This document shows, piece by piece, positions 16,747-42,183 of a stretch of DNA of 64,000 nucleotides. The notes under the pieces are model-generated. The model was not told the DNA's origin and did no database searches. It saw only the letters and a list, made by a program, of their open reading frames with translations. A program made the position numbers and the translations under genes. This DNA is from a virus. Its lineage: Duplodnaviria; Heunggongvirae; Uroviricota; Caudoviricetes. The stretch lies in IMG/VR virus record IMGVR_UViG_3300026484_000248, positions 34,711 through 98,710 of that record; one strand, given 5' to 3'. How positions within the stretch are numbered: position 1 is the first letter of the stretch; each line of letters starts with the position of its first letter.

Positions 16747-17355
16747 TTATTTGCCTTCTTTTTCTTTTTTATCTGAATCTTTTTCTTTTAACTTAAGTTT
16801 AGCCATCGCTTTACCTACTAATGTTCTGTATTCGTCTCTTGCCTCTGAACTACTGCCCCAATTAGTATCAAGTGATTCAACAGCTTCATCTTGAAATTTA
16901 AAAGCAAAATCCATAGCAGGAAGCAAATTTAAGTCCAGATTTTCTACACTATAACTTAATGTTATATGGGGTTTATAATCATCAAATTCCGAAATAAATT
17001 TATATTCTTGTACAAGCGCTTCATTTCGTTTAAGTAAATCTTGTGAATTTATTTCTGCAACTAATGCATCTTTATTTTCCCCAAATAGATTAAATTCTTT
17101 GAAAGTCCCTACTGCAGTATATTCAGCTGGTTCAATTTCCTCAACTTGTGGTTTCTTAGAATAAATTAAGCTGCAATGTAAATCCGTATTAATCTTTTGG
17201 CCTTTAAGATATTTTTCTTGATATTCTTTTACTGCCAGTTCAGTTTCCTCTGATAATTTAACCGATATATAAACCCCGTCCGGAAAATGAACCTCTTCAT
17301 GTTCTTCTCCGGTTTCTATATTATTTTCAGTAATATATTGTCTAAAGGTTACCAT
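16747..17355 (-). CDS. 2H phosphoesterase family protein (LigT / 2',3'-cyclic phosphodiesterase-like)
   Basis: It carries two H-x-T/S-x motifs (DLHCSLIY and KPHITLSY) with the spacing typical of the 2H superfamily. Confidence 0.5.
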   Translation of the reverse strand: MVTFRQYITENNIETGEEHEEVHFPDGVYISVKLSEETELAVKEYQEKYLKGQKINTDLHCSLIYSKKPQVEEIEPAEYTAVGTFKEFNLFGENKDALVAEINSQDLLKRNEALVQEYKFISEFDDYKPHITLSYSVENLDLNLLPAMDFAFKFQDEAVESLDTNWGSSSEARDEYRTLVGKAMAKLKLKEKDSDKKEKEGK

Positions 17356-19630: not shown

Positions 19631-19645
19631 CTTTTTTCCTTTATT

Positions 19646-21274: not shown

Positions 21275-21322
21275 TCTTTTGATATCCTGGCAATTATTTT
21301 ATATTTTACTAACTTTGGGCAT

Positions 21323-25860: not shown

Positions 25861-26441
25861 TAAGAACCCACAATCATATCAATTAAACCAATTTCCATTG
25901 CTTCTTCAGGGCTTAAAAATTTATCTCTATCTGTTAATACACAGATTTCTTCATAAGAAGTTTTGCCTTTTGTATATTCCGACATTTGTCTCATAAGTTT
26001 TTCTTGTAAATATTTTGACTCATTATAATCAATTTCCATATCTTGGAATTTACCTTGTGTTCCGCCTGCTAATGAATGAATCATAATTCTCGCGTTTGGC
26101 ATAGCACTTCTTGTACCTGTTCCTGCTGCTAGGATTTGATTTCCCATACTCATTGCAATGCCAGTACAAATTGTATTAACTGGAGTTTTAATATGACGCA
26201 TAACATCAATAATTCCGTTACCAGCATAAATACTTCCGCCACCACTTGAGATGTACATATTGATTTCTTTGCAGTCTTCTTTACTATCTAAGTATAATAA
26301 TTGTGCTTTAATTGTTGTTGCTAAATCATCACCAATACCATTTTCCAAAATGACAATATTTTCCTCAAATAGCTTGTCTATCATTGTATATTGTCTATCA
26401 CTTCTTCCGTCTTTTTCTGCCACATTTGGTAAAAATATCAT
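25860..26441 (-). CDS. clpP: ClpP-family serine protease subunit
   Basis: YISSGGGSIYAGNGIIDVMRHIKTPVNTICTGIAMSMGNQIL..ARIMIHSLAGG aligns with the ClpP catalytic Ser/His region (INSPGG..AG..IYD....TIC.G.AASMG...MIHQP.GG). Confidence 0.75.
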   Translation of the reverse strand: MIFLPNVAEKDGRSDRQYTMIDKLFEENIVILENGIGDDLATTIKAQLLYLDSKEDCKEINMYISSGGGSIYAGNGIIDVMRHIKTPVNTICTGIAMSMGNQILAAGTGTRSAMPNARIMIHSLAGGTQGKFQDMEIDYNESKYLQEKLMRQMSEYTKGKTSYEEICVLTDRDKFLSPEEAMEIGLIDMIVGS

Positions 26442-27523: not shown

Positions 27524-28042
27524 TTAGTCACGCTCAGACCCGTTTTTGTTTTTTTTAGAAATTACTCCATCATCAACTGCATTAAACATATCAACTTCTG
27601 CTTTATGCCCATCTTGTGTAGTTGTACTAAAAACCTCAACTCCTTCTATTGATTCTAATCTTTTATTAAAATCATTTATATCATTTCCTCTTTTTAAGAT
27701 CATAAATTCATCTCCACCAATTCTAAAAATTATACTATCTTCAAACTTTTCTTTCAAATCATTAGCAACTTTTTGAATAAATTCATCACCCGCTTCAAAT
27801 GAAACATCTCTATTTAATGCATGCAATCCATTTAAGTCTACCATTGCCAATATAAATCTATGTCCGAATTCTTTATAGGAGTACCACATTTCATCAAATC
27901 TATCATTAAAATCTGATCGTCTTAATAATCCTGTCAAACTATCATACTTATAATTTTTGATTATAAGTCGCAATTTTTGTACTTCCTGTTTTAATTTTGT
28001 ATTTGTCTTTTCCAAATACTCATTCTTTTCCTTCTGTGTCAT
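27524..28042 (-). CDS. GGDEF-domain protein (putative diguanylate cyclase; N-terminal coiled coil)
   Basis: YDSLTGLLRR..F...F......AMVDLNGLHALNRDVSFEAGDEF...RIGGDEFMIL carries all GGDEF catalytic-core hallmarks with an intact GGDEF; no RxxD I-site is present. Confidence 0.6.
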   Translation of the reverse strand: MTQKEKNEYLEKTNTKLKQEVQKLRLIIKNYKYDSLTGLLRRSDFNDRFDEMWYSYKEFGHRFILAMVDLNGLHALNRDVSFEAGDEFIQKVANDLKEKFEDSIIFRIGGDEFMILKRGNDINDFNKRLESIEGVEVFSTTTQDGHKAEVDMFNAVDDGVISKKNKNGSERD

Positions 28043-29894: not shown

Positions 29895-30161
29895 TTATTC
29901 CTCCTCTTCTATATCACAACAATATTCTGCATCAAACTCATTATCATATTCACATCCACATTCATCACAAGTGTATACATTTTCTTCATAATCATGTTCT
30001 GATTTTAAAGCATCATAATCATTTGGTCTCATTTCTTTTAAGATTTCTGAAGGCCAAAATCTAGTTCCTGCTATTGTAACTTCACCTTGTTCATCTAATA
30101 TCTCGTCAAATTCACTATCTGAAATTTCTTTAATTATTGTTGATTCTGTAACTGTTGCCAT
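29895..30161 (-). CDS. small acidic zinc-ribbon protein
   Basis: It has the C-terminal cluster YTCDECGCEYDNEFDAEYCCD; a promoter lies at 30175-30200. Confidence 0.4.
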   Translation of the reverse strand: MATVTESTIIKEISDSEFDEILDEQGEVTIAGTRFWPSEILKEMRPNDYDALKSEHDYEENVYTCDECGCEYDNEFDAEYCCDIEEEE

Positions 30162-30212
30162 TTTATATCCTTTTTGTTATATAATTATAACATTAATATC
30201 TTTAAAACAATA

Positions 30213-30509
30213 TTAAATAAAGTATTCTGGATTAAGCATTTCAAATATTTTTAAAGCTTTTTCCAAATTTTGAGATATTTGGATGTTAAAGTCAGCTTTT
30301 TGTGCAGAAAAAGCAATAACACAAATATCATTTTGAATTACTGGAATATCATATTCTCTTAATTTTTTTACTGAAAAATTAATAATTCTATCACTAATAT
30401 CATTATCAAAATTAATCAACTCAAATAAGAACTCATTTATTATTTCCGTTCCTATTAAATCTACAAATAATCTACTATTTTGATAACCAGCTTGTGTGTA
30501 AAAATTCAT
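30213..30509 (-). CDS. small protein of the PEYFI-tail family (ends ...LNPEYFI)
   Basis: It shares the conserved C-terminal pentapeptide with 4 paralogs. Confidence 0.45.
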   Translation of the reverse strand: MNFYTQAGYQNSRLFVDLIGTEIINEFLFELINFDNDISDRIINFSVKKLREYDIPVIQNDICVIAFSAQKADFNIQISQNLEKALKIFEMLNPEYFI

Positions 30510-30949
30510 AGGAAATATTCTGGATTTTTTCTTTCAAATAACGGTACAAAAATACTTTTGAAATCGTTCTTTAGTTCCCTTAATAAAATTGAACGCTGTT
30601 TGGCAATTGCTTTTTCTTGTTCTCTAAGTTTTTTATATAAATTCATTTTATTATAAATCTCTATATTTTCTTGAAATAATTGAAGAGCTTCTTCCTCAAA
30701 TTCAAAGGCTTCATTACTTTGAGCTACTCCAAATTCAGCAGGTCTTGTTTCATTAGTCGCTTGATATTCTTTAAATACTAAGTGCATATTTTTCCTTTTT
30801 TCTAAATTATTCCATAAACCGAGCTTTATTTCACATTCTATACAAATTTTATAATTATGTTGACTTCTCCAATTATAAGTAAATGAAGTATTTTGTTTTT
30901 CTGTATTACAAACTTTACATTTATAACTCTTACATTTTGGTATAAACAT
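30506..30949 (-). CDS. PEYFI-tail family protein with N-terminal Cys4 zinc ribbon (ends ...KNPEYFL)
   Basis: It has CKSYKCKVC...CIEC and the C-terminal NPEYFL; it overlaps the next gene by 4 nt. Confidence 0.45.
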   Translation of the reverse strand: MFIPKCKSYKCKVCNTEKQNTSFTYNWRSQHNYKICIECEIKLGLWNNLEKRKNMHLVFKEYQATNETRPAEFGVAQSNEAFEFEEEALQLFQENIEIYNKMNLYKKLREQEKAIAKQRSILLRELKNDFKSIFVPLFERKNPEYFL

Positions 30950-30958
30950 TTTCTTTTC

Positions 30959-31153
30959 CTATATAAAATATTCCGGATATTTAATTTCAAAATCACTGAA
31001 TGTTTTTCTGCCGTATTCTGTTAAAGTAATCCACCTATCTTTTTTATCATTTATTTTTATTTCATTATTTCTAATAAGATAACCTTTATTTTTAAAAAAT
31101 TTCCTCATTGCCGCTTTTGTTAAAAGTACATTTTTATATTTTCTTTTGAACAT
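30959..31153 (-). CDS. PEYFI-tail family small protein (ends ...KYPEYFI)
   Basis: It has the C-terminal motif. Confidence 0.4.
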   Translation of the reverse strand: MFKRKYKNVLLTKAAMRKFFKNKGYLIRNNEIKINDKKDRWITLTEYGRKTFSDFEIKYPEYFI

Positions 31154-31222
31154 AAATTATCTAAATCCAAATCAAATTCTTTTCTTTTATATAAATTATC
31201 TAATAATGTAATAAGTTTTAAA

Positions 31223-31504
31223 TTAAATCCCATATTCTGGATAATCCTCTTCAACTTTTTTAAGTGTTAAGCCATTGTAATTTGTACAAAGATAATCACT
31301 AACCATCGCTCTCACCAAATCTTCCGGACTTTTTAAATTATTAATTAAATGTCTTCTAACCAATAAATTCATTTCAACCGTTACTTTTGGACTTCCAAAT
31401 TCATTTGCATAAAAACTTGACGAGATTTCATTTTCTCTTACTGTTAATTCTTTTAAATAAAAACTTTCCATTAATGGTGACAAAGCTAAATCTATCGTTG
31501 ACAT
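31223..31504 (-). CDS. PEYFI-tail family small protein (ends ...DYPEYGI)
   Basis: It has a variant of the C-terminal motif. Confidence 0.4.
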   Translation of the reverse strand: MSTIDLALSPLMESFYLKELTVRENEISSSFYANEFGSPKVTVEMNLLVRRHLINNLKSPEDLVRAMVSDYLCTNYNGLTLKKVEEDYPEYGI

Positions 31505-31526
31505 CTTACTCTCCTTTATAAAAGTC

Positions 31527-32405
31527 TTATTTTACACTAAATATAAAACTTGATTTTTCATTCCCTACAGTTGTAGGAGTAACTCCATTCCATTTTTTAA
31601 TACTTTCTAACTTCAGTAATTTATCTGTAACACTTTTTGAAACAGTTTTATTTGCATAAGCCTCACTATCAGCTTTAATTTTTACAGCTTCTGCCTCACC
31701 TTTTGCTTTAGCTATTACAGCTTGAGCTTCGTTTTCCGCTTTCTTAACTAACTCAAGACTTGCTAGGGCGGTTTGTTTTGCGACTTGAACTTCTAACATT
31801 TTTTGGGTAATTTTCTCTGGTACCAAAATGTCTTTTAAATTAATTCCTACTAATGTAAAATATGGGTTTTTACTATATGAACTTTTTAATAAATCCGTTA
31901 ATGTTTTCTCTACTTCTGCCCTATGGTCCATAATTGTATCTACACTAAATTTAGAAATTGTACTTTGAACAGCTTCTCTATTTACTTGAAGGACTTTCTT
32001 ATAGAAACTGTTTTCAAAATCCCCATCTTCTCTGTACATTAAGGGCAAATTTTCTGCATTCGGTCTAACTTCAATACTTAATGCCAGCCCTACCGGAATA
32101 CCTTTCTTATCTAAACCTTTAAGTGGCGTTTCATATTGTAAAAGCTCAGTGTCTTGTTTTCCCGATTCTGACTTACTATAATTAATTAAAATAGGTCTAA
32201 TTGTCTTAATGTCCATTGTCTGATAAATTGGCACAAAAATGTGATAACCAGGTTGAACTGCTTGCATATCATACTTAGTTCCTGTTTTCATAATACCTCT
32301 ATCTCCGTCATTTACAATTGCTACTCCAGTTTTAGTTGCTATCATAATCCCTAAAATTAATAGTAAAGTAAACATTGCTCCTGTTATATAACCTAAAATT
32401 CTCAT
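31527..32405 (-). CDS. SPFH/band-7 (prohibitin / HflK/C-like) membrane protein
   Basis: It has an N-terminal transmembrane helix, an SPFH core, and an Ala/Glu/Lys-rich coiled coil (EAQAVIAKAKGEAEAVKIKADSEAYA). Confidence 0.6.
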   Translation of the reverse strand: MRILGYITGAMFTLLLILGIMIATKTGVAIVNDGDRGIMKTGTKYDMQAVQPGYHIFVPIYQTMDIKTIRPILINYSKSESGKQDTELLQYETPLKGLDKKGIPVGLALSIEVRPNAENLPLMYREDGDFENSFYKKVLQVNREAVQSTISKFSVDTIMDHRAEVEKTLTDLLKSSYSKNPYFTLVGINLKDILVPEKITQKMLEVQVAKQTALASLELVKKAENEAQAVIAKAKGEAEAVKIKADSEAYANKTVSKSVTDKLLKLESIKKWNGVTPTTVGNEKSSFIFSVK

Positions 32406-32892
32406 TTTCTTTCCTTTTTTTATTATTACATTATCTAAATGTATGTTGTTTAATGTTCTTATTTGGAAATTTTAATACCCAAATAATCCAAAACTTGATT
32501 TCTTAATAGTAAAATTGTATTTCTCTTTAATAAACTATTAGTTTTTAAAAGTAAGTTGCCTTACTAAATGGTAGTCAAACATGCTATATTTTTCTACTTT
32601 AAAACATAAAGCCATATCAAATAATTCTAGTTAATTTAATAATTTCTCCTTTTCTGTATTATATCACTTTATTTTCTATCATTAACAATACTATTAAAAC
32701 ATAATCGTCACTACAAATGTGATTCCAAATGTCTGTACTGCCCTGTTAAATAAATTTTCTGTTATTTTAATCTTTCTTTTTGTTTTAATTTCTTAAGATA
32801 ATCTCTGTTATCTTGAACCTGTTTTTCTTGAATTTTGATTATATTTTCAAGTGCCTTAATTTGTCTTTCATTCTTTTCTCTTTCTGTCTCCA

Positions 32893-33423
32893 TTATGCGC
32901 CCACCATTATTTCTCCTTCTTTAGACTTACAAATTTCCATAATTTTCCTCATTATTTTTGTTTGTCTATCAGTTACTTCTTTTCTCTCTTCTATCAAATA
33001 TTCTATTAATTCAACAGTATTCTTAACGTATTTTTTAGTTGGTCCGTCTATAACATTAGATAATCTATCTAAAAGTTTAAGCGTAAAGGCATATCGTGAC
33101 ATCTTTTCCATTTTATCTTTAAGATATTCATTCTTACCCATTAATTTACTCTGTTTTTTATCGCTTGTTAATTCAATAACTATACTTGAAACTAATGGGC
33201 CAAATTCCCTTTCTAGTTCATGATAAGTCGTTTCTGTGTCCTCTAAAGTATCATGAAGTAATGCAGCACATTTTAGCTCGTCTATATGTTTTGAAGTTCC
33301 CTTATATTTTTGAACTAATTCCATAACAATAATGGGATGCGTTACATAAGGCAATCCTGTACTTCTTCGTTCTTGACCTTTATGCTTTTCCGATGCAAAT
33401 TGAATTGCTTTAATTACTAACAT
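32893..33423 (-). CDS. HD-domain (p)ppGpp hydrolase-like protein (RelA/SpoT HD; small alarmone hydrolase-like)
   Basis: AIQFASEKHKGQERRSTGLPYVTHP...AALLHDTLEDTETTYHELEREFG matches the hydrolase-domain consensus of RelA/SpoT/Mesh1. Confidence 0.6.
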   Translation of the reverse strand: MLVIKAIQFASEKHKGQERRSTGLPYVTHPIIVMELVQKYKGTSKHIDELKCAALLHDTLEDTETTYHELEREFGPLVSSIVIELTSDKKQSKLMGKNEYLKDKMEKMSRYAFTLKLLDRLSNVIDGPTKKYVKNTVELIEYLIEERKEVTDRQTKIMRKIMEICKSKEGEIMVGA

Positions 33424-33507
33424 TTTGTGCCTTTATATAATTTTATAATAAAATAAGATGAATATCTTTCTTTAAAAAATTCTTTCTAAATTTAAATATT
33501 CTCTTTC

Positions 33508-33927
33508 TTACTTTTTTTCTTTAATTTGTTTAATAAGACTTATGCACTCATTTTCAACATATCTCAGATCTTTAACTGTATCATCTGCGTCTGCAAAATC
33601 TCTCCACATTTGAATTCGTAAAGATGCAGCGTTTCTCAATTTTTCATCGATTTTATTATCTTCTAGTAATTTTTTAGTAAAATCAATGTCTGGCGCGTCT
33701 CCACAATGACCGCAATCAAAACCAATCCATCTAATTTTATCTGGTGTAGAAATTGGATAACCTGAATTTCCACCAGTATAAGTTATCCCGCCGTGACAAC
33801 TTAATTCATCTTCATTTATTTCTACATTTAACGGAACCGCCACATACCCCATTCTAAAACCTAGGGATTTTTTAATAGCAACAACATATTGAATTCCTTC
33901 ACTAGCATCAACTTTTTCTATAATCAT
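33508..33927 (-). CDS. hypothetical protein (HGG..Y.GG...W.GFDCGH.GD motif)
   Basis: It is a 139-aa ORF with a conserved-looking His/Asp cluster of unknown family. Confidence 0.35.
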   Translation of the reverse strand: MIIEKVDASEGIQYVVAIKKSLGFRMGYVAVPLNVEINEDELSCHGGITYTGGNSGYPISTPDKIRWIGFDCGHCGDAPDIDFTKKLLEDNKIDEKLRNAASLRIQMWRDFADADDTVKDLRYVENECISLIKQIKEKK

Positions 33928-33938
33928 TATTTTCCTTT

Positions 33939-34274
33939 TTAATCTCTTAATTCTGTATATCCAAAAGCATCAACCATGAATGAAGCTCCTCTTATTTGAA
34001 TTATATCACCAACTGAGGTACTTCTACACCCATCTTTAAACTCATTTGCCACTTCTATTCTTGAGTCTAAATACCATGCATTACTTAAATTCTGAGTAAT
34101 ACTAAAAGCTGTTTCATATGGGTTTTCTCCTTTTTGAATATCTATATCACAAACTTTAATATAATTATTATGTTTTAATTGATCCATTGCGAAATCAAAT
34201 CTTTCTTTTTCATTATATATACACATCATTTCTCCAAATTGTTCTCTTGGTAAATGTCTTACAGTAACTAACAT
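33939..34274 (-). CDS. hypothetical protein
   Basis: It is a 111-aa ORF with a promoter at 34296-34318. Confidence 0.35.
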   Translation of the reverse strand: MLVTVRHLPREQFGEMMCIYNEKERFDFAMDQLKHNNYIKVCDIDIQKGENPYETAFSITQNLSNAWYLDSRIEVANEFKDGCRSTSVGDIIQIRGASFMVDAFGYTELRD

Positions 34275-34338
34275 TTTAAGTCCTTTTGTTTTATTAAATA
34301 ATTATAACACTTTAACCTTAAACTAAAATTAAATGTAA

Positions 34339-34911
34339 CTATGCATACCAACTTCTGTAAAATGTTTTATTTTCATCTTTATTAATTTTGTTGGCACTTC
34401 CACAAGGTCTTTTGAAACTGTCTCCATTTAATCTTACAGTAATCTCTTCACCTCTAAAATCATTTGCTACCGGTTTAACATTTTCTGATGCCCAACTTGT
34501 AGTTTCCACGCTTTCATAACTAATTAGTCTAACTTTAATTGTCGCTGCAGTTTTCTTTTCAGTTACCTGATAAAAATCTAAGTTAGTTTGTTCCCATCCC
34601 CAAGAATAACAAAATATATCTCCAACTTGAACATTTTTAGCATCTTCTGTTTTTTGGAGTTTTTGCTTTGCTTTTCTCTCTTTTTCTTTTACCTCGTTTG
34701 AAATTTTATTATTGTACCATTCTAAACAATATTCCAACATTCTATCTTCATCTTTAAATCTTGTATAAAATACAGTTTTTGTGCCATATTTGCTTCTTTT
34801 AGCAATCCTGTTAAGTTTAGCAATTCTTTTATCTTCTATAGTTAATATATAGCCTTCTTTACCTAATGTTAAAAATGCTTCTGTAAGTTGTTTTATTTTA
34901 TCAGTATTCAT
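34339..34911 (-). CDS. hypothetical protein
   Basis: It is a 190-aa ORF with a promoter at 34938-34962. Confidence 0.35.
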   Translation of the reverse strand: MNTDKIKQLTEAFLTLGKEGYILTIEDKRIAKLNRIAKRSKYGTKTVFYTRFKDEDRMLEYCLEWYNNKISNEVKEKERKAKQKLQKTEDAKNVQVGDIFCYSWGWEQTNLDFYQVTEKKTAATIKVRLISYESVETTSWASENVKPVANDFRGEEITVRLNGDSFKRPCGSANKINKDENKTFYRSWYA

Positions 34912-34978
34912 AATGTTTTCCTAATGTTAAATGTTTTCTTATATAATTATAACATCCTAACCTTAAATAACATTAAAA

Positions 34979-35590
34979 TCATTTATAATTTTCTAAGATT
35001 TTCAAACCTTCTAATGCCTTAACATTAAAACTTCTACGATGTTGTTCAGTATAACCATATTTTTTAATTGCTTCTATATGTCCTTTTGTTCCGTAACCTG
35101 CATTATTTTTCCAGTCATACATAGGATATTTTTCATCCCATTCTTTCATTCTTTTATCTTTTTCAACCTTAGCAATAATACTTGCTGCAGCAACAATACT
35201 AACTTTAGCATCTGCTTTTACAAGAGTTTCAATACCAGTTTCATAATTACATTTGCCATCATAGAGTATTTTTGTTCTATTATTTTCTTTAAAATAATCT
35301 TTAATATAAGTCAAACTATAATTACAAGCATCTGATAGTCCATTATCATCAATATAATTTGCATAGATTTCAACTACCTTGTAATCCACTATTTTAACTA
35401 CTTCTTCATAAAGTGCTTCTCGTTTTTTCTTTGACATACTTTTACTATCATTCGCAAAAGCAATATCTTTAATTGTTTTGCCTTCTTTTAAAACTGCACC
35501 AACAAAAATAAGTGAGCCTGCCAAATTTCCTCTGCCCGCTTCATCTATTCCAACATAATCCTGATACTGCGCATCTAATTCCTTAAGCAT
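34979..35590 (-). CDS. rnhB: ribonuclease HII
   Basis: It has GIDEAGRGNLAG, DSK, the IIAKVEKDKRM region and GYGTKGH..AI..YG.T..HR.SF; the start is reassigned to the internal ATG (35590) with an RBS, because the track N-terminus is a spurious extension. Confidence 0.7.
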   Translation of the reverse strand: MLKELDAQYQDYVGIDEAGRGNLAGSLIFVGAVLKEGKTIKDIAFANDSKSMSKKKREALYEEVVKIVDYKVVEIYANYIDDNGLSDACNYSLTYIKDYFKENNRTKILYDGKCNYETGIETLVKADAKVSIVAAASIIAKVEKDKRMKEWDEKYPMYDWKNNAGYGTKGHIEAIKKYGYTEQHRRSFNVKALEGLKILENYK

Positions 35591-35604
35591 TATTATCCTT
35601 TGTA

Positions 35605-35631
35605 TTTTATAAATAATTATAACTAAAATAC
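35605..35631. promoter_or_regulatory. promoter-like TATAAATAATTATAAC element between divergent rnhB and endonuclease VII genes
   Basis: A palindromic -10-like motif lies about 20 nt from each start codon. Confidence 0.35.
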
Positions 35632-35648
35632 ACTTAAAAAGGCTTTTA

Positions 35649-36173
35649 ATGGAAGAATTAAAACAACTAAAAAGCAAAGATATTACAAAAATAAGAGATG
35701 AAATCCTATATTTTCAGCAAGGTAAATGTGCATTATGTCATAATCCAATAACAGAAAAATCTGGAACTTCATTAGACCATCAACATAGAACAAAAGATTC
35801 CATAATCGGTGAAAATGGAGGTGGATTAGTTCGTGGAGTGCTCTGCAGAAGCTGTAATGTCTTTGAAGGTAAGATATGGAATAATAGTAAAAGATTTGGA
35901 TTGCACGATAATTTATCAAATTGGTTAAGAGATTTAGCAGATTATTTAGATAAAGAAAATTATCCTTTGATTCATCCTTCAGAAGAGCCTAGGGAACCGA
36001 AGGTATCAAAAAGAAATTATAATAAATGTAAAAAATTATACAATGAAGAGGAATTTATACCTAAAAGAAAAAATCAGAAGAAAAAACCTATGATAGAATA
36101 CCCTAAGACAGGTAAACTAACAAAAGGACTTCGTGAATTATTTGAGAGGTTTGGAATAAGTCCTTATAATTAG
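35649..36173 (+). CDS. endonuclease VII-like Holliday junction resolvase (T4 gp49 family)
   Basis: GKCALCHNPI...SLDHQHRTKD...GLVRGVLCRSCNVFEGK matches the Endonuclease_7 zinc/HNH-like core (DHDH.TG.VRGLLC..CN..LG). Confidence 0.65.
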   Translation: MEELKQLKSKDITKIRDEILYFQQGKCALCHNPITEKSGTSLDHQHRTKDSIIGENGGGLVRGVLCRSCNVFEGKIWNNSKRFGLHDNLSNWLRDLADYLDKENYPLIHPSEEPREPKVSKRNYNKCKKLYNEEEFIPKRKNQKKKPMIEYPKTGKLTKGLRELFERFGISPYN

Positions 36174-36188
36174 GACTTATTCCCAAGA

Positions 36189-36623
36189 TTACATATCTGC
36201 TACTAACTCTTTAGCATTTTCTCTAGCTAATTTTAAATCATATTTACCAGCATATTTTGCTTTCATATAACTCATAAGTTGTGCAACTTTCATTTTACCA
36301 GATTCAGCCATTGCTTGTCTAATAGCATCTTCGTCCATATCGTATTCTTTTTCATTAATAGCTTCGTTCATTGCTTTTTTATGTTTTTTAATCATATCAT
36401 TATAAAATTTAGCAATCATGTTACTATCGTTTTCTTTATCCAAAAGTTCAACGAACTCTTCAGGTGTAGCATCACCACCATAAATAGGTGCATCAGGATA
36501 GTTATCTTGGAACCAGTCATACATATCTTGTGTAAATTTATTGTCCTCTGTACCTTTGTATAATGCGTTTATCATATTGTCTTGTGACGCCTTTTCGTTT
36601 AAGTAATCTTTAAATGTTTTCAT
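36189..36623 (-). CDS. hypothetical acidic protein
   Basis: It is a 144-aa ORF. Confidence 0.35.
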   Translation of the reverse strand: MKTFKDYLNEKASQDNMINALYKGTEDNKFTQDMYDWFQDNYPDAPIYGGDATPEEFVELLDKENDSNMIAKFYNDMIKKHKKAMNEAINEKEYDMDEDAIRQAMAESGKMKVAQLMSYMKAKYAGKYDLKLARENAKELVADM

Positions 36624-36715
36624 TTCATTCTCCTGTTTTATTAATATTTATAAATTTCATTATACTAAATTACACTAAATTTGTACTAAATTTGTACTAA
36701 ATTGTACTAATCCTT

Positions 36716-39436
36716 CTATAACTTTTTACTAAATTTCAAAATATCTTCGTCTTGAAAATATTTGGCTTCACCTTTAATATAACCTATACTTTTAATGAAT
36801 TTTAAGAATTTTGTTTTGACATTTAACTCAGAATCTATTTTTGCTATTTCATTTATACTATATCTACTCTTTAATTTTAAAGTTCCTGATAGAAGACTAA
36901 TGTAACTAAGAAATTCTGTATAAGACTTATTCTGTAAACTCGACACATCTCCCGAAATAGTTTGAGATAACAAATAAAGGCTGTAAGTTTGTGAATTAAA
37001 AGCCTTTTTAGCTATGCGTAATTTAGTTATCATTCCTAGATATTTAAAATTTGTTTCTAATTGCTTTTCAGTTAAAAATAAAATCTCATCTTTTGTTAAA
37101 TTACCTTTAAATTTTTCTTGTATCTCAAGTGCTAGAAGTTCTACAGTTTCAGACTTAGAAAGTTCAACAGTTTTATTCCTTAAAGCATCAATATCAGCAA
37201 GGCTAAAATCTTTGTTTTCCCATTCTTTGAGAACTTTTATTTGATCTTGTTTCTCTTGATTTTTGATTTCTTTAATTGTTTCTTTTAAGTCAAATTTTTT
37301 ATCTTCAATATAGATATTGAAGATATTACCAGTAAACTGATGTTCTAATAATATCTTAAAAGCATTTGCATGGTTATTTTTAGTAATATTAAAAAAAGCT
37401 TCTATTTTGTTTACATAAGAACCCAATTTGGTTAATTTTAGTTTACCGGTTTTATAATCCACATCAACTAGCAATGTAGCGTCTTTATTGGTATAAAAAT
37501 TATTAATGTTTGTCTCTGCGATTGAGTTGATACTTTTAACATCAGTATCAAAATAAAATTGCCTTTCCTCTAAAAAATAATGAATTTCTTCTGCTGTTCT
37601 ACTTCTTTTAATCATCTGAAGACTCGAAACCACATCTGTACTCATCCCTGAGTCATAATGAAAATGTTTTCTAACATTATTAAGATTGGAAACTCCAACA
37701 GTTAAAGTGGGTGAATATAAAATAACTTCATAAGCATTATGTTTAAATTCTTTAAATTTTTTGAAGATTATCTCTTTAGTATAAGAAGGGGTCTCAGCAT
37801 TAAGCATAATTACTTTTACTCCTGCTCTTTTTAACTTTAAATCTATTGCTTTCATTATGTTATTACTTGTAAAAGATGCAGTTAAATGAGTTCCTTTTTC
37901 TAATAACTTGGATTCTTCTATTAAAGTACTTGCAAAATGTTCTTTGTTTTTGTATTCAAATAATTTAATATCATCACGGTAAACATTATCAATCATAGAA
38001 ATAGACCTCTTATTGAAAAAAATATCTTCATAACCAGTTAAAAATGCATCAGCCACTAAAGTTCTTTTAGTATCAAGTAAGATTTTAAACTTAACAATAT
38101 TAATATTAGAGTTTGGAGTAAGATTACTTCGATGGTGAAATAAAAGTGATATAAACTCATCAAGAATAACAACATCAAATTTATCAATATCAAATCTGTG
38201 CAAACTATCAAATTGCACTACAAGGCTTTGATTTTGCTTCCAAGCATCCTTATCTTTGTACCACATCATATCATATTTTTCGGCAAAATCTTGTGCCACT
38301 GATACTCTATTAGAAATTAAAATTACTCTTTCTTTTCTTTTGTGGGCTTTCTGTATGCATACTTCTATTCCGTTAGATTTGGCAGTCCCCATTGCTGATT
38401 TAATCTTTAAAATATCTTTATTACTTTCTAAAAATTTATCAATTATCTCGGACTTTCTACTATCACTAAAATCTAAATAACGCTCGTCACATTTATAATA
38501 AGTATTATATTTAAAAGTATTTTCTTTAATTAACTGATGTCTCTGTTCATCTTTTGTTTTGTTTTTAAGCCATTTCTTACCCACCGGAGTAGTTTTAAGT
38601 AAATTAAAAATACTTACAGTTCGATCTTTATTATGATGATTCATTACTAAAGGTTGAGTACTAAACCAAAAGAAGCCACCTGGTGATTTAACTTCACTTG
38701 TATGAGTAAAATTAATTGCACCTTCTGTAGATAAAGAATTTCTGATAGGACTATAACCTAAAGTAGCAAAAATTGAAATACATTCATCTATAACCTCATT
38801 ATTATAAGAAACTTCTACTTTATAATTATTACCCATAGATTCTTTTATGTTTTCAATATGCACATCTTTGTCAGTAAATTTGATGCCTTTTTCATTATAA
38901 TGAACTATCATTTTAGAATGGCTAGGTGCCTGATACGATTGTAGACTCCCGACTGTTAAATCAACTTTACATTTAGAACCCAATTCAATCTGTAGTTGAG
39001 TCAAAGCAACTTTTATTATTTCATATTTATTCTCAAAAGAAACCCTTAATATTCCTTTCATATTAAAACAATCTTTACCATTCCAACTTCTTGACTTACC
39101 AAGAATGCAACTAAAATTTTTATCTTTAAAATATTCTATAGTTTCTAAATAATCTTCTTTGGTAGTTATCTTATCCAAATCTAAGATTATATTTTTTAAT
39201 CTCTTATATGCGTATGGTTTGAGGTGCTTTTGATCTCTGATTATTTGAGTGGGTTCTTTAAGATTAAGTGGTTGAGAAAGTGTAAAATGATTAGTCATCA
39301 TTTGAAATGCTACACTTAAAGTTTCACTTTCTTTATTGGCAAAAAGGAAAGATTCGTCTACATATTTCGAAACAACATGCTTTGCTTTTTTCGGGTTTTC
39401 AGTACCATTAAACATAGTTATCTGTATTGCTGCCAA
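36716..39436 (-). CDS. large P-loop NTPase (Walker A SAMGTAKS, Walker B VVILDEF) - putative replicative primase/helicase-like protein
   Basis: It is 906 aa with a central NTPase core and N-terminal and C-terminal extensions of unknown family; a 545-bp AT-rich non-coding region lies upstream. Confidence 0.45.
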   Translation of the reverse strand: MAAIQITMFNGTENPKKAKHVVSKYVDESFLFANKESETLSVAFQMMTNHFTLSQPLNLKEPTQIIRDQKHLKPYAYKRLKNIILDLDKITTKEDYLETIEYFKDKNFSCILGKSRSWNGKDCFNMKGILRVSFENKYEIIKVALTQLQIELGSKCKVDLTVGSLQSYQAPSHSKMIVHYNEKGIKFTDKDVHIENIKESMGNNYKVEVSYNNEVIDECISIFATLGYSPIRNSLSTEGAINFTHTSEVKSPGGFFWFSTQPLVMNHHNKDRTVSIFNLLKTTPVGKKWLKNKTKDEQRHQLIKENTFKYNTYYKCDERYLDFSDSRKSEIIDKFLESNKDILKIKSAMGTAKSNGIEVCIQKAHKRKERVILISNRVSVAQDFAEKYDMMWYKDKDAWKQNQSLVVQFDSLHRFDIDKFDVVILDEFISLLFHHRSNLTPNSNINIVKFKILLDTKRTLVADAFLTGYEDIFFNKRSISMIDNVYRDDIKLFEYKNKEHFASTLIEESKLLEKGTHLTASFTSNNIMKAIDLKLKRAGVKVIMLNAETPSYTKEIIFKKFKEFKHNAYEVILYSPTLTVGVSNLNNVRKHFHYDSGMSTDVVSSLQMIKRSRTAEEIHYFLEERQFYFDTDVKSINSIAETNINNFYTNKDATLLVDVDYKTGKLKLTKLGSYVNKIEAFFNITKNNHANAFKILLEHQFTGNIFNIYIEDKKFDLKETIKEIKNQEKQDQIKVLKEWENKDFSLADIDALRNKTVELSKSETVELLALEIQEKFKGNLTKDEILFLTEKQLETNFKYLGMITKLRIAKKAFNSQTYSLYLLSQTISGDVSSLQNKSYTEFLSYISLLSGTLKLKSRYSINEIAKIDSELNVKTKFLKFIKSIGYIKGEAKYFQDEDILKFSKKL

Positions 39437-39865
39437 TTCCTTTCCTTCTTTTTTTATTATTATAACTTTTTTATACTTAATTTAATTAAAAAATAGTTGT
39501 ATTACCTATCCGAAACTATTCTAATTTAGTTCCGTATTTTTATAAAGACATTATGTTATAACTTTTTAATTTGTTGAATTTTCATTTCTAAAATACCACT
39601 CTTTAAATGGTATTTATTTTTATATTAAGTAATTTTAATATATTTTTCTCTATAAATAGAAAGTTATAATACTTTATAAAACCTCATCATAAGTAAAAAT
39701 TGGAATGAATAAAACACTAAAAGTTGTTCTTTTAAAACTTTGCATTTTCTTTGTTTTATAAGGTTTAACTAAAACGCTTCTTCCCTTTGTCAAAATACTA
39801 ATATTTTTTCTAATTATTTTTTCTTTTCTTGTGATTATCATTGTATATCCTTAAAATTTATAATA

Positions 39866-39990
39866 TAATTGTATCATAATAAACTTAAAATAGGTTTAAA
39901 TAAAATACTCTGGAAATTCAGTTCTAATATCTTCTAATCTTTTTGAAAAGAACTTATTGTTTTATGTTATTTTCAATGTATTCTAACAAT
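39866..39990 (-). pseudogene. duplicated fragment: promoter + 3' end of a PEYFI-family gene (copy of 40229..40377 with a 24-nt internal deletion)
   Basis: A near-identical 125-bp direct repeat includes the ...TEFPEYFI-encoding end and the taatataattgta(a/t)cataataaac promoter motif. Confidence 0.5.
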
Positions 39991-40198
39991 TATATTGATT
40001 ATTTAATGCTGTTTCATAAGCTACTTCAGAAACAAGTTCCATTAATTCAGCCATATCGTCTTTATTTAATTCGCACACATTATTAGATAAATATCTTCCG
40101 TAAAATTCTTCTGGTGTAACTCCAGCTACTCTTAATAAAGCATCTTTATCAACTGGTAACCAATTATAAAATTCCTCTTGTGTATTAAATACTAACAT
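39983..40198 (-). CDS. hypothetical small protein
   Basis: It is a 71-aa ORF with a promoter at 40211-40245. Confidence 0.35.
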   Translation of the reverse strand: MLVFNTQEEFYNWLPVDKDALLRVAGVTPEEFYGRYLSNNVCELNKDDMAELMELVSEVAYETALNNQYNC

Positions 40199-40262
40199 TT
40201 GTTTCTCCTGTAATTATAATGTTTTGTTAATATAATTGTAACATAATAAACTTAAAATAAGT

Positions 40263-40550
40263 TTAAATAAAATACTCTGGAAATTCAGTTCTAATATCTT
40301 CTAATCTTTTTGAAAAGAACTTATTGTCTTCTTTTATTTTCCAATTTATGTTATTTTCAAGGTATTCTAACAATGCTCCGAGATTGTCAAAAATCTGATA
40401 CTCTTTCGCTTGTATTTTAACGCCACCGTAATAAGTTTCGTAATTTCCCATATTGGAACTTATTTTAATAACCTCTTTTGCTATATTAAAAATAGCTGGG
40501 GTTACTTCACCGTATGTGTTTTCCGGGTTAAAATATATATAGGTTTTCAT
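40263..40550 (-). CDS. PEYFI-tail family small protein (ends ...TEFPEYFI)
   Basis: It has the C-terminal motif and is the fifth family member. Confidence 0.45.
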   Translation of the reverse strand: MKTYIYFNPENTYGEVTPAIFNIAKEVIKISSNMGNYETYYGGVKIQAKEYQIFDNLGALLEYLENNINWKIKEDNKFFSKRLEDIRTEFPEYFI

Positions 40551-40813
40551 ATGTCTAAAAAGCTTAATTTATAGGGATTTTCATCTATAAAATATAAACT
40601 TTTATTAACCCACATTCTTGTATTATTTTTATCCAATTCCCAAGTTATTATATTATTAATATTTGCTTTATACATTATAATAGTATCTGATTTCAAATCA
40701 AAACAACAGCTTGATTCTAATATATCTTCAGGCCTAATTTCACCCTGAAAACATTCATTTTCAGAAATAAATTTTAAAATATTTTTTGGCATTTGTATTG
40801 CGTATTCTTCCAT
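40547..40813 (-). CDS. hypothetical small protein
   Basis: It is an 88-aa ORF with a 4-nt overlap. Confidence 0.35.
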   Translation of the reverse strand: MEEYAIQMPKNILKFISENECFQGEIRPEDILESSCCFDLKSDTIIMYKANINNIITWELDKNNTRMWVNKSLYFIDENPYKLSFLDI

Positions 40814-40821
40814 AACAACTA

Positions 40822-42183
40822 CTATAGTAAAATATGAACATTTTGCTTAGATCTAGTACAAGCAACATAAAACAATCGTAACAAATCTGTATCATTTACA
40901 TAACCCAGGTTACTCATATCAACAAAGACATCTATATAGCTTGAGCCTTGTAGTTTGTGCGTAGTACTAGAAAACTGTGGTTTTACTTCCAAAAATACTG
41001 CTAATAAGTCAAAGTACATTTTCCAAGCCATCCTATCTTTTTGTTTAATGGCATTCGCTTTTAATAGTGCACAAGCATGTTCGTAATCTACTTTTGATTC
41101 TTCAGCCAACATATTAAACTTCCTACCATCGGTAGTTGTGCACTTGTATCCTTTAAAAATCTTACCTTTAAAATCAAAATCCGTAAAAGTACTTTGCTTA
41201 AGACTTAAAACTTCAGAATTAACAAACCCGTTTTGCCCAAATTCTAAATTATCTTGAGTACTTTGCTGCACTACAAATAAATCTAAAGGATGGATTTCTG
41301 GAATTTCCCCATTTTCATCTTTAGTATAATAACTTCTGATACTTGTATTATATTTTTCAACATTAGCATTCGTAAATGTTGCTATTACATCGTCATCATT
41401 TCCTAATCTATCTTTTTTAATAAACTCACCGATAAATTCTTTTTTAGTTTTGTAGAATTTTATTTTATTATGGGCACCAGCATCTCGTTCTTTTACTAAG
41501 TAATTAAATAAATCATATTTAGTCATATTAGAACTTATCATAGAACGGATTTTTGTTACGAAATTTATAACTTCCATATCTGTATTTCTAATAAGTTCTG
41601 ATAGATTATAGTGATTTATCGAACTATTATCATATATGGCGTGATTAGTGTGTGTTTCTCCCACTGGTAAAAGTTGAAACTCGTCGCCTATAAACAGAAA
41701 AGAACTAATTCTAGAATTTTGATACATTTCTTCTTTAAGAAATTTAAACATTTCTTTCGACACCATCGAACTCTCATCTAGAATACAAATATCAAATTTT
41801 TCTTTTGCTAATGAGCTCATTGTTTTATTACTTGTATCTTTTACAAATTTTTGCTCTCCTGTTTCCACATTAACTTTACCAGGCTTTAAACCTAAAAATG
41901 AATGTAAAGACGCAAAACTCAATTTCTTATGTTGGATTCCTATTGTATTCCTAATAACTTTTGTGGCCTGGTGCGTAGGAGCCACTACTGCTATCTTAAA
42001 ATTCATATTCAATAAGGTTTGAACTATCTTTTTTGATAAAAAGGTTTTGCCTGTCCCTGCTGGGCCTTTCAAAGATACCCAAGAATGTTCAGCAAATATA
42101 TCACCATTTCTAACTTCCTTAATATCTTCTATTATACTATTATAAGCATGTTCTTGCTCTTCTGTTAATTTAATATTTTCCAT
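40822..42183 (-). CDS. dda: Dda-like SF1B DNA helicase
   Basis: It has GPAGTGKT, ILDESSM, THKLQGSSYIDVFV and YVACTRSKQNVHI and is collinear with T4 Dda (439 aa); a promoter lies at 42191-42219. Confidence 0.75.
   Translation of the reverse strand: MENIKLTEEQEHAYNSIIEDIKEVRNGDIFAEHSWVSLKGPAGTGKTFLSKKIVQTLLNMNFKIAVVAPTHQATKVIRNTIGIQHKKLSFASLHSFLGLKPGKVNVETGEQKFVKDTSNKTMSSLAKEKFDICILDESSMVSKEMFKFLKEEMYQNSRISSFLFIGDEFQLLPVGETHTNHAIYDNSSINHYNLSELIRNTDMEVINFVTKIRSMISSNMTKYDLFNYLVKERDAGAHNKIKFYKTKKEFIGEFIKKDRLGNDDDVIATFTNANVEKYNTSIRSYYTKDENGEIPEIHPLDLFVVQQSTQDNLEFGQNGFVNSEVLSLKQSTFTDFDFKGKIFKGYKCTTTDGRKFNMLAEESKVDYEHACALLKANAIKQKDRMAWKMYFDLLAVFLEVKPQFSSTTHKLQGSSYIDVFVDMSNLGYVNDTDLLRLFYVACTRSKQNVHILL

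Follow-up and report, generated by a model that had tools for sequence, protein, structure and literature searches.

The ssrA tag, the SspB XB tethering peptide and the HbYX motif of proteasomal ATPases are each read by one ATP-dependent machine. HbYX provides the last three residues of ATPases or activators docking onto 20S-type proteases. The ssrA-type and other non-polar C-terminal degrons consist of terminal hydrophobic residues with a free end. The MoxR-VWA systems, i.e., RavA-ViaA, CbbQ-CbbO, CoxD-CoxE, and NorQ-NorD, remodel specific client proteins, and a literature search found no client-recognition tail described for them. The signal of the T4 internal proteins is N-terminal and cleaved off, and the cargo genes are few and late or structural. 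Substrates of type I secretion end in an acidic residue and hydrophobic residues. In T4-type phages, C-terminal hydrophobic peptides bind the clamps, and promoter-carrying repeat cassettes, i.e., PeSL elements, shuffle small ORFs.

The window, i.e., the whole stretch of 64,000 nucleotides of DNA of an uncultured phage that was analysed, encodes proteins which share a C-terminal tail. The tail resembles ssrA, ClpX C-motif 1, the XB peptide and HbYX in being a short hydrophobic chain-end peptide with a free terminus on unrelated proteins. However, the sequences are unrelated, i.e., YPE and three hydrophobic residues against LAA, LRVVK, and hydrophobic-Tyr-X. The phage tail also differs in its patterned helix and invariant Pro-Glu, which precede or form part of it, in its presence on up to a quarter of the proteins of one phage, and in its suspected reader, which would be a MoxR-type ATPase, a protein with no such known tag. 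The tyrosine lies mostly at position -3 and not at -2 as in HbYX (among 354 members, Y at -2 in only 25 and F in 233), and the carriers are small non-ATPase proteins. As to the MoxR-VWA systems, the tail genes of relatives share operons with an AAA_5 ATPase, but the phage ATPases match no solved structure by sequence, being too divergent in a profile comparison, and none is encoded in the window. The T4 capsid targeting sequence and the encapsulin cargo peptides are similar in that one terminal peptide is found on many unrelated, fast-diversifying small proteins with genes in variable genome regions. Unlike the T4 signal, the phage tail is C-terminal and is carried by dozens of genes in a replication-gene context. 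The literature search for the motif strings and the concept returned nothing relevant, and the tail looks like an undescribed address tag.

Tail genes and the direct repeat in the window

The preliminary description listed five ORFs ending in a shared pentapeptide. All five were recovered on the minus strand at the coordinates below, each ending in P-E-Y-[F/G]-[I/L] before the stop codon.

30213..30509, minus strand: tail gene of 98 aa, ending ..LKIFEMLNPEYFI (..NPEYFI), tail codons at 30216-30230
30506..30949, minus strand: tail gene of 147 aa, ending ..FERKNPEYFL
30959..31153, minus strand: tail ORF of 64 aa, ending ..FEIKYPEYFI
31130..31140, minus strand: homopolymer run, A5 in the window against A6 in locus L004, a one-base difference that splits a gene of approximately 91 aa
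31223..31504, minus strand: tail gene of 93 aa, ending ..VEEDYPEYGI, with Gly at position -2
40263..40550, minus strand: tail gene of 95 aa, ending ..IRTEFPEYFI

They share their strand with the genes for replication and nucleotide metabolism among which they lie. PEY occurs 12 times in the six-frame translation of the window, and six of these are followed by [F/G][I/L] and a stop codon. The DNA pattern CCNGARTAYTTYHTNTRR had five matches against 0.01 expected, a number reached in none of 100 shuffles. At the rate of the control phage loci (3/2063 genes), the chance of at least five tails among approximately 67 genes is 6e-8.

The five proteins had been called otherwise dissimilar, and this was confirmed. 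Without the tail, BLASTP placed them in separate clusters, and hhalign of the orthologue groups without the last 13 residues gave probabilities below 2%.

Diverged orthologues in related loci keep the tail. The 98-aa gene has an orthologue in L021 (3854-4120) with 33% body identity and 5/5 identical terminal residues. The 147-aa protein has a CxxC..CxxC segment at its N-terminus followed by a long helical part, and the stop codon of its gene overlaps the next start codon (ATGA). Its orthologues in L004, L005, L009, L018, L019 (two copies), and L021 show body identities of 27-74%, and all carry the tail. Loss of one A splits the gene of approximately 91 aa (approximately 30959-31254) in the window, and the 64-aa ORF is what remains of its 3' part. 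The DNA alignment with L004 is 99% identical with a single gap at approximately 31135, and the gene is intact in L004 (8198-8473) and L005 (860-1147, ..EYPECFI). The 93-aa gene directly follows a Band_7/SPFH gene (31527-32405), and its orthologues end in ..DYPEYGL (L005), ..NYPEFFI (L019), and ..TYPEVII (L021). For the 95-aa gene, the L020 orthologue (1719-1979, ..KADFPEYFI) has 36% body identity and an identical tail (5/5).

A direct repeat of approximately 130 bp, with copies 96-97% identical, lies at the 3' end of the 95-aa gene. The repeat and its dead sixth tail copy, which the preliminary description had noticed, are real, but the limits differ slightly from those first given. The features of this region and the promoter-like motifs were as follows.

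39861..39990, minus strand: repeat copy A, a relic of the 3' end of the 95-aa gene that has lost 17 nt and offers no usable ORF
39983..40198, minus strand: ORF of 71 aa without tail, between the repeat copies (three-frame translation and pairwise alignment)
40228..40374, minus strand: repeat copy B, which covers approximately 37 codons from the 3' end of the 95-aa gene, the stop codon and the promoter-like motif that follows
40230..40244, minus strand: promoter-like motif ATGTTATAATTATAT inside copy B, with a counterpart in copy A at 39863-39877 (one mismatch)
30179..30193, minus strand: promoter-like motif ATGTTATAATTATAT (extended -10) closely following the 98-aa gene on its 3' side

The dead tail codons lie at 39896-39913, with no usable ORF upstream. 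The frame of the 71-aa ORF continues into this dead tail and is broken by two stop codons. For the pattern ATGTTAYAATTATAT, which contains the extended -10 element, the window has 19 sites where 3.5 would be expected. The sites are mostly on the minus strand and several are between genes, including 30179, 40230, and 39863. A generic sigma-70 and terminator scan was uninformative in the AT-rich DNA of the window (27% GC), and the early promoter which the preliminary description placed in the repeat is a candidate only.

As with the PeSL elements, a small ORF, here tail-less, is flanked by repeat copies that contain a recurring promoter-like motif. This arrangement is as expected from recombination between repeated promoter segments, and the 71-aa ORF was probably inserted, or took the place of another gene, when the repeated segment of 3' end and promoter recombined. 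The repeat differs from PeSL elements in including approximately 75 nt of coding sequence, and no stem-loop or terminator was found. A PeSL-like recombination would account for the sixth pseudo-copy only and not for the tail motif.

Anatomy and spread of the tail

The pentapeptide is best explained as the end of a C-terminal module of approximately 13 residues, i.e., hydrophobic(-13)-x-x-[L/I/F](-10)-[K/E]-x-x-[Y/H/N/F](-6)-P-E-[Y/L/F]-[F/L/Y]-[I/L/V]-COOH. In the module, a short amphipathic helix leads into a P-E turn, and three hydrophobic residues have to close the chain. The proline is invariant (163/163), the glutamate nearly so (162/163), and Y, H, N, or F is preferred at -6. The core motif is exactly C-terminal in 154 of 158 occurrences, never lies 1-5 residues from the end, and is internal four times (109,402 residues). 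AlphaFold2 models were made for the 98-aa protein (pLDDT 48, i.e., low confidence; helix 82-92, then the P-E-Y turn) and the 147-aa protein (pLDDT 70; helix 77-141). The two models, whose confidence is low to moderate, agree on a helix that runs to -7 and breaks at -6, after which come a single P-E-Y turn and two free terminal residues.

The preliminary description reasoned that the docking idea would fall if orthologues lost the motif or if an overlapping DNA element explained it, and neither was found. Between orthologues, identity was 40% in the bodies, 39% at positions -13 to -6, and 85% in the last five residues, whereas core genes of the same phages were 47-73% identical. In the nucleotide sequence, information was 2.98 bits at each C of the proline codon and 0.02 bits at its third base. 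All four proline codons are used (CCA 20, CCT 18, CCG 6, CCC 2), near bulk usage, and no conservation was seen past the stop codon. Because the information is codon-periodic, the third position of the proline codon is free and nothing is conserved downstream, the tail is not a DNA element. The tail is under selection at the protein level and is strictly anchored at the C-terminus of many unrelated, fast-evolving, mostly small proteins.

The scope of a five-member family was greatly underestimated, as the tail was found on hundreds of proteins in many phages. At least 354 distinct tail-bearing proteins were detected (median 88 aa, range 40-379 aa), and 78 loci have at least two tail genes. In 40 related loci, 24% of the proteins bear the tail, and in the densest stretch it is found on 15 of 19 genes. 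After tail removal, 42 members fell into 27 BLAST clusters. A Pfam-A and PHROGs v4 scan of these 42 detected no family common to more than one member. The only Pfam matches were RING-finger models on a protein of L012, which is probably a chance member, and the five window proteins had no PHROG match below E = 1e-3. The tail-bearing proteins include products of cultured Vibrio phages (the group of phiKT1024, Va1, pv27, and phiTY18) and of one gene of Alteromonas phage AD45-P1.

Several searches gave no relatives. Near-identical DNA to positions 30000-42000 was not found in cultured phages, and tblastn with two family members and a search with a 20-aa consensus tail had no matches. The 906-aa helicase as a query in viral contigs found no related locus. 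A profile of the five window tails against protein representatives gave one repetitive artefact among the matches listed (E up to 1e-3). In genome contigs, the tail scan gave mostly single chance matches. The records with several matches were phage contigs that binning had assigned to an 'Ignavibacteria' and a 'Thermoplasmata' MAG, and this assignment is too weak as host evidence for the tail phages.

Candidate receptors and alternative readings

The only genomic association of the tail is with genes of MoxR-type AAA+ ATPases. In MoxR-seeded, tail-poor loci, 21 of 146 genes within three positions of MoxR carried the tail against 9 of 396 further away (14.4% vs. 2.3%, p = 5e-7), and in a second collection 31 of 304 against 10 of 494 (10.2% vs. 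2.0%, p = 6.5e-7); these loci are not independent events, since much of the signal comes from a few orthologous operon genes. The conserved operon order is MoxR, a Gad2-like protein (278-379 aa) ending in KY[P/A]EYFI, and a protein of approximately 95 aa ending in ..KPEEFI. In the N4-like lineage, tail genes are placed in operons with an AAA_5 ATPase and a VWA/DUF2201 protein. The sampling project of the window phage also yielded AT-rich contigs with MoxR and tail genes. The association is not complete. Alteromonas phage AD45-P1 encodes both MoxR and a DUF2201 protein, yet has only one or two tail genes, and some MoxR loci have none.

On this basis, it is a serious possibility, somewhat short of an even chance, that the tail is an address tag for one common receptor, most likely the phage MoxR-type AAA+ ATPase or its co-worker. 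The tail would act as a short linear motif that enters the receptor with its free carboxy-terminus, so that dozens of different accessory proteins of one phage would be handed to the same machine. The receptor would be a phage-encoded MoxR-type ATPase (Pfam AAA_5) or its partner protein, and in relatives this partner may be the DUF2201 VWA/metallopeptidase-like protein. The ATPase may engage the tail and then remodel, activate or unfold the tagged proteins, or it may use them as adaptors bringing host targets. No MoxR (AAA_5), DUF2201 or Gad2-like gene was found in the 64-kb window and the 10 kb beyond its left end, none of the MoxR homologues listed lay on the 117,018-bp contig of the window phage, and approximately 41 kb of the source contig is unread; the receptor is therefore one that we infer, and gene neighbourhood is not the same as binding. 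The preliminary description had proposed a docking motif for the sliding clamp, SSB or the phage ClpP. The docking idea in its general form, a protein-level C-terminal motif on unrelated early proteins, was supported, but the three named partners were not.

The 'Gad2' label on the MoxR-adjacent carrier is a precomputed Pfam annotation, which flags this conserved protein as Gad2-like (anti-Gabija). A fresh Pfam scan did not reproduce the label and gave a weak nucleotidyltransferase match only.

Among the alternatives, a degradation tag deserves the most attention, although it is unlikely. The tail would deliver early proteins to an AAA+ protease (host ClpXP, ClpAP, FtsH, or Lon, or the phage ClpP with a host unfoldase), by which they would be removed together once unneeded or would saturate the host proteases. 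As in ssrA-type and other non-polar degrons, three hydrophobic residues form the exact C-terminus and a free end is required (154/158 terminal). The window also encodes ClpP (25860-26441, Ser-His-Asp triad conserved), which adjoins an M17 aminopeptidase (24577-25860), and the tail cluster is directly preceded by the gene of an HflK-like Band_7 protein. However, 80 ClpP-seeded phage loci carried the tail at background level, i.e., in 3 of 2063 genes with the loose pattern (0.15%) and in 2 of 2063 with the stricter one, and a relative with a 64%-identical ClpP had no tail on any of the 36 genes of its 20-kb locus. These results speak against ClpP as the docking partner. The invariant P-E and the patterned upstream helix are not features of known non-polar degrons. 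In place of ..LAA or AA-COOH free of upstream needs, the tail has P-E, three bulky hydrophobic residues and Y/H/N/F at -6. A pure instability signal would also be odd on the 280-380 aa enzyme-like protein of the MoxR operons, on which the tail has long been kept.

Two receptor candidates were discarded. ClpP, considered on account of the adjacent ClpP and M17 genes, was rejected as the leading candidate after the ClpP-seeded control. In the window, L005, L018, L019, and L021, the Band_7/SPFH gene immediately precedes the cluster, and it is absent from most tail-rich loci of the other lineage.

A tail without any common partner is rather unlikely. It would be an intrinsic cap or self-association element, kept by descent from one far-diverged ancestor. 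Tandem tail-gene paralogues are common (L050, L020, and L032), the residues at -6 (Y, H, N, and F) are single-base neighbours, as common descent would predict, and the amphipathic helix in the module would suit a structural cap. Against this, the carriers range from 40 to 379 aa with bodies unrelated at the profile level, and conservation at positions -13 to -6 does not exceed that of the bodies, in contrast to the last five residues. An internal structural helix need not end the chain, yet nearly all motifs are terminal and none lies just short of the end.

Distinctly unlikely is that the tail marks an expandable adaptor repertoire of the phage, in which variable bodies would bind host targets and the constant tail would plug into one AAA+ machine that remodels or destroys the target. 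The targets could be host defence or housekeeping proteins, and the machine could be MoxR with its VWA/metallopeptidase partner, or ClpP, which is encoded downstream in several of the same modules. Such a repertoire would be the counterpart, in a bacterial virus, of the F-box or PRANC-type viral adaptors.

A sorting signal, either for export from the cell in the manner of type I secretion or for loading into the capsid for injection, as with the T4 capsid targeting sequence or the encapsulin cargo peptides, is very doubtful. An acidic residue with three hydrophobic residues at the extreme C-terminus fits such a signal, and so does the logic of one terminal peptide on many unrelated cargo proteins. 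But the tail genes have replication and nucleotide-metabolism genes and extended -10 promoter-like motifs as neighbours and lie apart from late structural genes, none of the loci showed a transporter gene, and at least 20 cargo species per genome would be unlike the known cases.

Recruitment to the replisome by docking onto the sliding clamp or SSB is highly improbable. The clamps of T4-type phages do bind C-terminal hydrophobic peptides, and the spacing E(-9)-x-x-h(-6)-x-x-aromatic-aromatic loosely resembles a PIP box. However, the Gln and Leu of the clamp-binding consensus are missing, and the tail shows no Q or L-x-L-F pattern as in QL[S/D]LF or the T4 gp45-binding C-termini. The SSB tip is disordered and acidic, ends in [I/L]-P-F-COOH and belongs to an OB-fold protein, whereas the tail comes after a helix, contains only one invariant Glu and is found on non-SSB carriers. 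None of the recognisable replication enzymes of the window (ligase, helicases, RNase HII, and RNR) carries the tail, and the SSB-like and nuclease-like (PD-(D/E)XK-like) proteins of the N4-like relatives have another ending, xLFK ([S/P/K]LFK). It is implausible that a quarter of all genes, and locally as many as 15 of 19, would encode clamp clients.

Conservation at the nucleic-acid level, as a promoter or UP element, a ribosome binding or translational-coupling signal, or a recombination site of cassettes, is close to refuted: a promoter-like motif follows two of the five tails, TGA stops are enriched on tail genes (30% vs. 17%, reflecting ATGA overlaps), the tail Glu is GAG in 41% vs. 17%, and the window repeat suggests that a tail and promoter segment was recombined, but the proline third base is free between invariant bases, Glu is written with either of its codons, residues are exchanged for physico-chemically similar ones (Y/F/L, F/L/Y, and I/L/V), and the downstream contexts of the five genes differ (overlap, 9 nt, 51 nt, 64 nt, and approximately 70 nt).

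Meaning for phage biology

Most of the small early genes of phages lack both detectable relatives and a handle on their function, and the shared tail offers one handle for all of them. The tail can be searched by a simple pattern, needs a free C-terminus and is carried by cultured Vibrio phages, which makes it directly testable. Being short and portable, a tag that a phage machine reads could in addition be developed into a tool. If a single receptor were found, dozens of unknown proteins per phage would be placed in one pathway. If this receptor is the phage MoxR-type ATPase, the tail would be the first client-recognition code for a poorly understood AAA+ family, and it would give a role to the MoxR and VWA genes of the sampled related phages.

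The tail and its carriers

Five ORFs of the window had been described as ending in P-E-Y-[F/G]-[I/L] immediately before the stop codon, and all of them were confirmed. The tail, i.e., Tyr-Pro-Glu followed by three hydrophobic residues, is exemplified in its 13-residue form by LKEFEKKYPEYFI. A degenerate DNA pattern for PEYF[I/L/M/F]-stop was found five times in the window, against 0.01 expected.

Tail genes and the associated repeat in the window
30213-30509, minus strand: tail gene
30506-30949, minus strand: tail gene
30959-31153, minus strand: tail-bearing 64-aa ORF
31223-31504, minus strand: tail gene
39861-39990, minus strand: repeat copy A, a relic of the copy B sequence, without ORF
39983-40198, minus strand: 71-aa ORF without tail, between the two repeat copies
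40228-40374, minus strand: repeat copy B, the 3' end of the 95-aa gene (40263-40550) with a promoter-like motif
40263-40550, minus strand: tail gene

The 64-aa ORF is present, but comparison with L004, a locus of a 99%-identical relative, showed it to be the distal part of an approximately 91-aa gene and not a full gene. One A is missing from an A6 run (A5 at window 31130-31140, minus strand, vs A6 in L004 8160-8482), and the gene is split into the 64-aa ORF and a short ORF, listed for the window at 44 aa and called as 37 aa. The difference may come from an assembly error or from slippage, or mark a recent pseudogene.

The direct repeat reported to carry a sixth copy of the motif is real, i.e., 39861-39990 vs 40228-40374, with 96-97% identity and a 17-nt deletion. 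The arrangement can be read as the product of recombination between repeated segments made up of a 3' end and a promoter, by which a gene was replaced or inserted; this would account for the sixth copy and not for the motif itself. The 71-aa ORF is in frame with the dead tail copy downstream (39896-39990, minus strand), and two stop codons intervene. The promoter-like motif, ATGTTAYAATTATAT, occurred 19 times in the window against 3.5 expected, mostly on the minus strand and in several cases in intergenic positions. A generic promoter scan of the window was uninformative in DNA of 27% GC.

The preliminary description spoke of a family of five. The five ORFs stand, but the size does not, as hundreds of carriers were found. 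IMG/VR was scanned with two codon-degenerate patterns; multi-hit contigs were numerous, and full ORF reading of these loci showed many further tails beyond the reach of the patterns. Among the 692 distinct proteins encoded in the 40 loci that had two or more tails, 163 (24%) were carriers. The core, PE and three hydrophobic residues, occurred 158 times, i.e., 154 at the exact C-terminus, none at 1-5 residues from the end and four internally. The densest stretches had the tail on 15 of 19 (L113), 14 of 23 (L065) and 12 of 28 genes (L054). The final tally was 354 distinct tail proteins, with 78 loci holding at least two; the proteins are small (median 88 aa, maximum 379 aa), and the commonest ends were PEYFI (103), PELFI (41) and PELLI (28). 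The tail is a modular, strictly C-terminal tag at the protein level, and it is borne by hundreds of small phage proteins that are not related to each other.

The carriers fall into two broad groups with a common early-gene module. The first, to which the window phage itself belongs, has a T4-like virion, and the second comprises kin of the N4-like Alteromonas phage AD45-P1. AD45-P1 has the same gene order as the window (SPFH, small ORF, ligase) and also a ClpP, with a single clear tail gene, gp027, ending in ..ERHPEYFL. In the cultured Vibrio phage phiKT1024, which belongs with Va1, pv27, phiTY18, SRILMA and TDDLMA in one phage group, 8 of the 77 genes of a 41-kb region also bear the tail. Publications on this group are genome descriptions. 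No description of the tail was found in the literature searched by motif strings and by concept, and the tail is undescribed in the libraries searched.

An IS607-like element, i.e., a serine recombinase and an OrfB/TnpB-like protein with HTH_OrfB_IS605 domain, lies amid a run of tail genes at 5713-7524 of L027 (contig IMGVR_UViG_3300026484_000351), and the insertion is also within L023 and L030. Phage contigs packed with tail genes were deposited in MAGs, i.e., L107, L113, L142 and L092 in "Ignavibacteria" D1103M12metaG_Bin_482 and the tail-rich L143 in "Thermoplasmata archaeon M9B1D". These contigs are probably mis-binned, so the MAG labels give no reliable host.

A conserved end on unrelated bodies

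Orthologues of the window tail proteins were located in related phages (L004, L005, L009, L018, L019/L020 and L021), and those of all five proteins keep the tail. Over 13 orthologue pairs, identity was 40% in the body and 39% at positions -13 to -6, counted from the last residue as -1, and reached 85% over the final five. For core genes of these phages it was 47-73%. Therefore, the carriers are accessory proteins that evolve fast except at a frozen end.

The bodies are otherwise dissimilar, as had been stated. Without the tail, 42 members formed 27 BLAST clusters. In profile-profile comparison of the five orthologue groups, six of ten pairs aligned, over the last 12-15 residues only; with the last 13 residues cut, the probability was below 2% for every pair. 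Pfam and PHROG searches gave no family match among the members, save one probable chance hit. The tail is thus a module that unrelated bodies have in common, although very old common ancestry of the carriers, whose alignments are shallow, may still lie behind it. AlphaFold2 models of two window proteins (pLDDT 48 and 70) predicted a helix to -7, a break, a single P-E-Y turn and a free end. The extended logo showed hydrophobic residues at -13 and -10, K/E at -9 and Y/H/N/F at -6.

Such an end would be a peptide through which all carriers dock onto a single reader. The main rival reading is that the tail is a protease degron. An explanation at the DNA level is unlikely. Codons were analyzed in tail-bearing genes gathered from related loci, with information content calculated over 162 genes. 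The invariant Pro used all four codons in proportions roughly as in bulk, and Glu used both; the two C's of the Pro codon held 2.98 bits each and the third base 0.02 bits. Information tracked codon phase throughout the tail and vanished past the stop codon, except for a weak G signal at the expected RBS of the next gene. Substitutions were conservative (Y/L/F at -3, F/L/Y at -2, I/L/V at -1), and downstream contexts differ among the five window genes. Because of the free third base, the phasing, the conservative substitutions and the differing contexts, a promoter, RBS or recombination site, the kind of overlapping DNA element raised as a possible refutation, is close to excluded. The invariant Glu was encoded by GAG in 41% of tails, compared with 17% for Glu across the bulk of these genes (46 genes, window and L004-L023).

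Gene content of the window phage

The window is the reverse complement of approximately 1974-65973 of a 117,018-bp ENA metagenome contig (ERZ27262648, k141_24581). From 14.9 to 45.7 kb it is a single long run of minus-strand genes of an uncultured phage. T4-like structural genes were found, i.e., gp13, gp15, baseplate, tail sheath and portal, with early and replication genes for ligase, two helicases, RNase HII, endonuclease VII, an HD protein, ribonucleotide reductase (RNR), ClpP, M17 aminopeptidase and Acb1. DNA search against cultured phages found no close relative. The 906-aa helicase showed 37% identity to that of a 191-195 kb Vibrio phage group and 29% to those of Campylobacter CP81-type phages.

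The ClpP homologue keeps the catalytic Ser-His-Asp and abuts the Peptidase_M17 (leucyl aminopeptidase) gene with one base in common (24577-26441, minus strand), forming a proteolysis pair within the early genes of this phage, whose virion is T4-like. A 172-aa gene between ligase and ClpP (window 27524-28042, minus strand; L004 11313-11831) has a precomputed Pfam GGDEF (diguanylate cyclase) match. A 202-aa protein (16747-17355, minus strand) matched Pfam Acb1, an anti-CBASS nuclease, at E = 9e-26. Homing endonucleases are numerous; at least three of the phrog_3339 type are dispersed over the window, besides several others. The RNR large subunit (18647-23014, minus strand) appears interrupted, i.e., a fragment at 18647-19630 is followed by a phrog_3339 homing endonuclease at 19646-21274 and then an RNR ORF, all on the minus strand. 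The equivalent of this ORF in L004 showed weak Hint-domain matches.

Candidate readers of the tail

A C-terminal docking motif had been proposed, with the clamp, SSB or phage ClpP as partners. The terminal motif at the protein level was borne out, but these partners were not supported. A clamp or SSB is an unlikely reader: none of the recognizable replication enzymes of the window carries the tail, and in the N4-like lineage SSB-like (approximately 228 aa) and PD-(D/E)XK-like proteins (approximately 262-275 aa) end instead in a separate motif, [S/P/K]-L-F-K, which may be their own replisome docking peptide.

Genes for proteins ending in [S/P/K]-L-F-K
L113, 1401-2189
L143, 2868-3554
L054, 4067-4870
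L074, 3476-4147
L032, 18047-18874

Against ClpP, 80 viral loci seeded on ClpP homologues of 38-76% identity held 2-3 tails in 2063 genes, and no tail gene was found in a 20-kb locus of a relative of the window phage (ClpP 64%, ligase 46% identical).

The best candidate reader of a docking tail would be the phage MoxR-type AAA+ machine. Tail genes repeatedly adjoin its gene (Pfam AAA_5) and, in the N4-like lineage, that of a DUF2201 VWA/metallopeptidase-like protein as well. In the tail-poor loci among 28 non-redundant MoxR-seeded viral loci, the tail was on 21 of the 146 genes lying at most three positions from MoxR vs 9 of the 396 more distant genes (odds ratio 7.2, p = 5e-7). A second collection of 75 loci gave 31/304 vs 10/494 (odds ratio 5.5, p = 6.5e-7). 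The loci are not phylogenetically independent, and the p values bear on gene neighbourhood, not on binding.

The arrangement is operon-like, conserved and of two forms. In one, MoxR is followed by a 278-379 aa protein ending in KY[P/A]EYFI, one of approximately 95 aa (..KPEEFI) and one ending in ..YPEFMV. In the other, it is followed by a 130-165 aa protein (..[F/Y]PEY[F/Y]I) and one of approximately 80 aa (..DYPE[L/F]W[I/V]). Bodies of the large MoxR-adjacent carrier are 22-28% identical, and the tail is kept; precomputed annotation assigns it to Pfam Gad2, and our own Pfam scan gave only a weak nucleotidyltransferase match. MoxR, DUF2201 and Gad2-like genes were looked for in the 64-kb window and in the 10 kb of the 117,018-bp contig that flank it on the left, and none was found. 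AT-rich contigs with MoxR and tail genes exist in the same JGI project, none tied to the window phage. Among the available fragments, no marker of the set MoxR, DUF2201, ClpP, Band_7 and Gad2-like fully separated tail-rich from tail-free loci by its presence in the former and absence from the latter. The MoxR profile had no PDB match by sequence.

In another MoxR subgroup (L293, L294, L297, L298 and L302), 234-255 aa proteins two genes downstream of MoxR end near ..Y-P-D-G-Y, a tail-like but distinct motif. The DUF2201 protein has H-N-M-L-H in L011 (9343-10569) where L023 (4137-5480) has H-E-S-L-H, and the putative metallopeptidase may be catalytically dead in one lineage.

The tag is conserved against fast-evolving bodies. 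The phiKT1024 group offers an experimental system for the tail. Terminal tags read by ATP-dependent machines are known already as a concept; this tag, its scale and its suspected reader are not.
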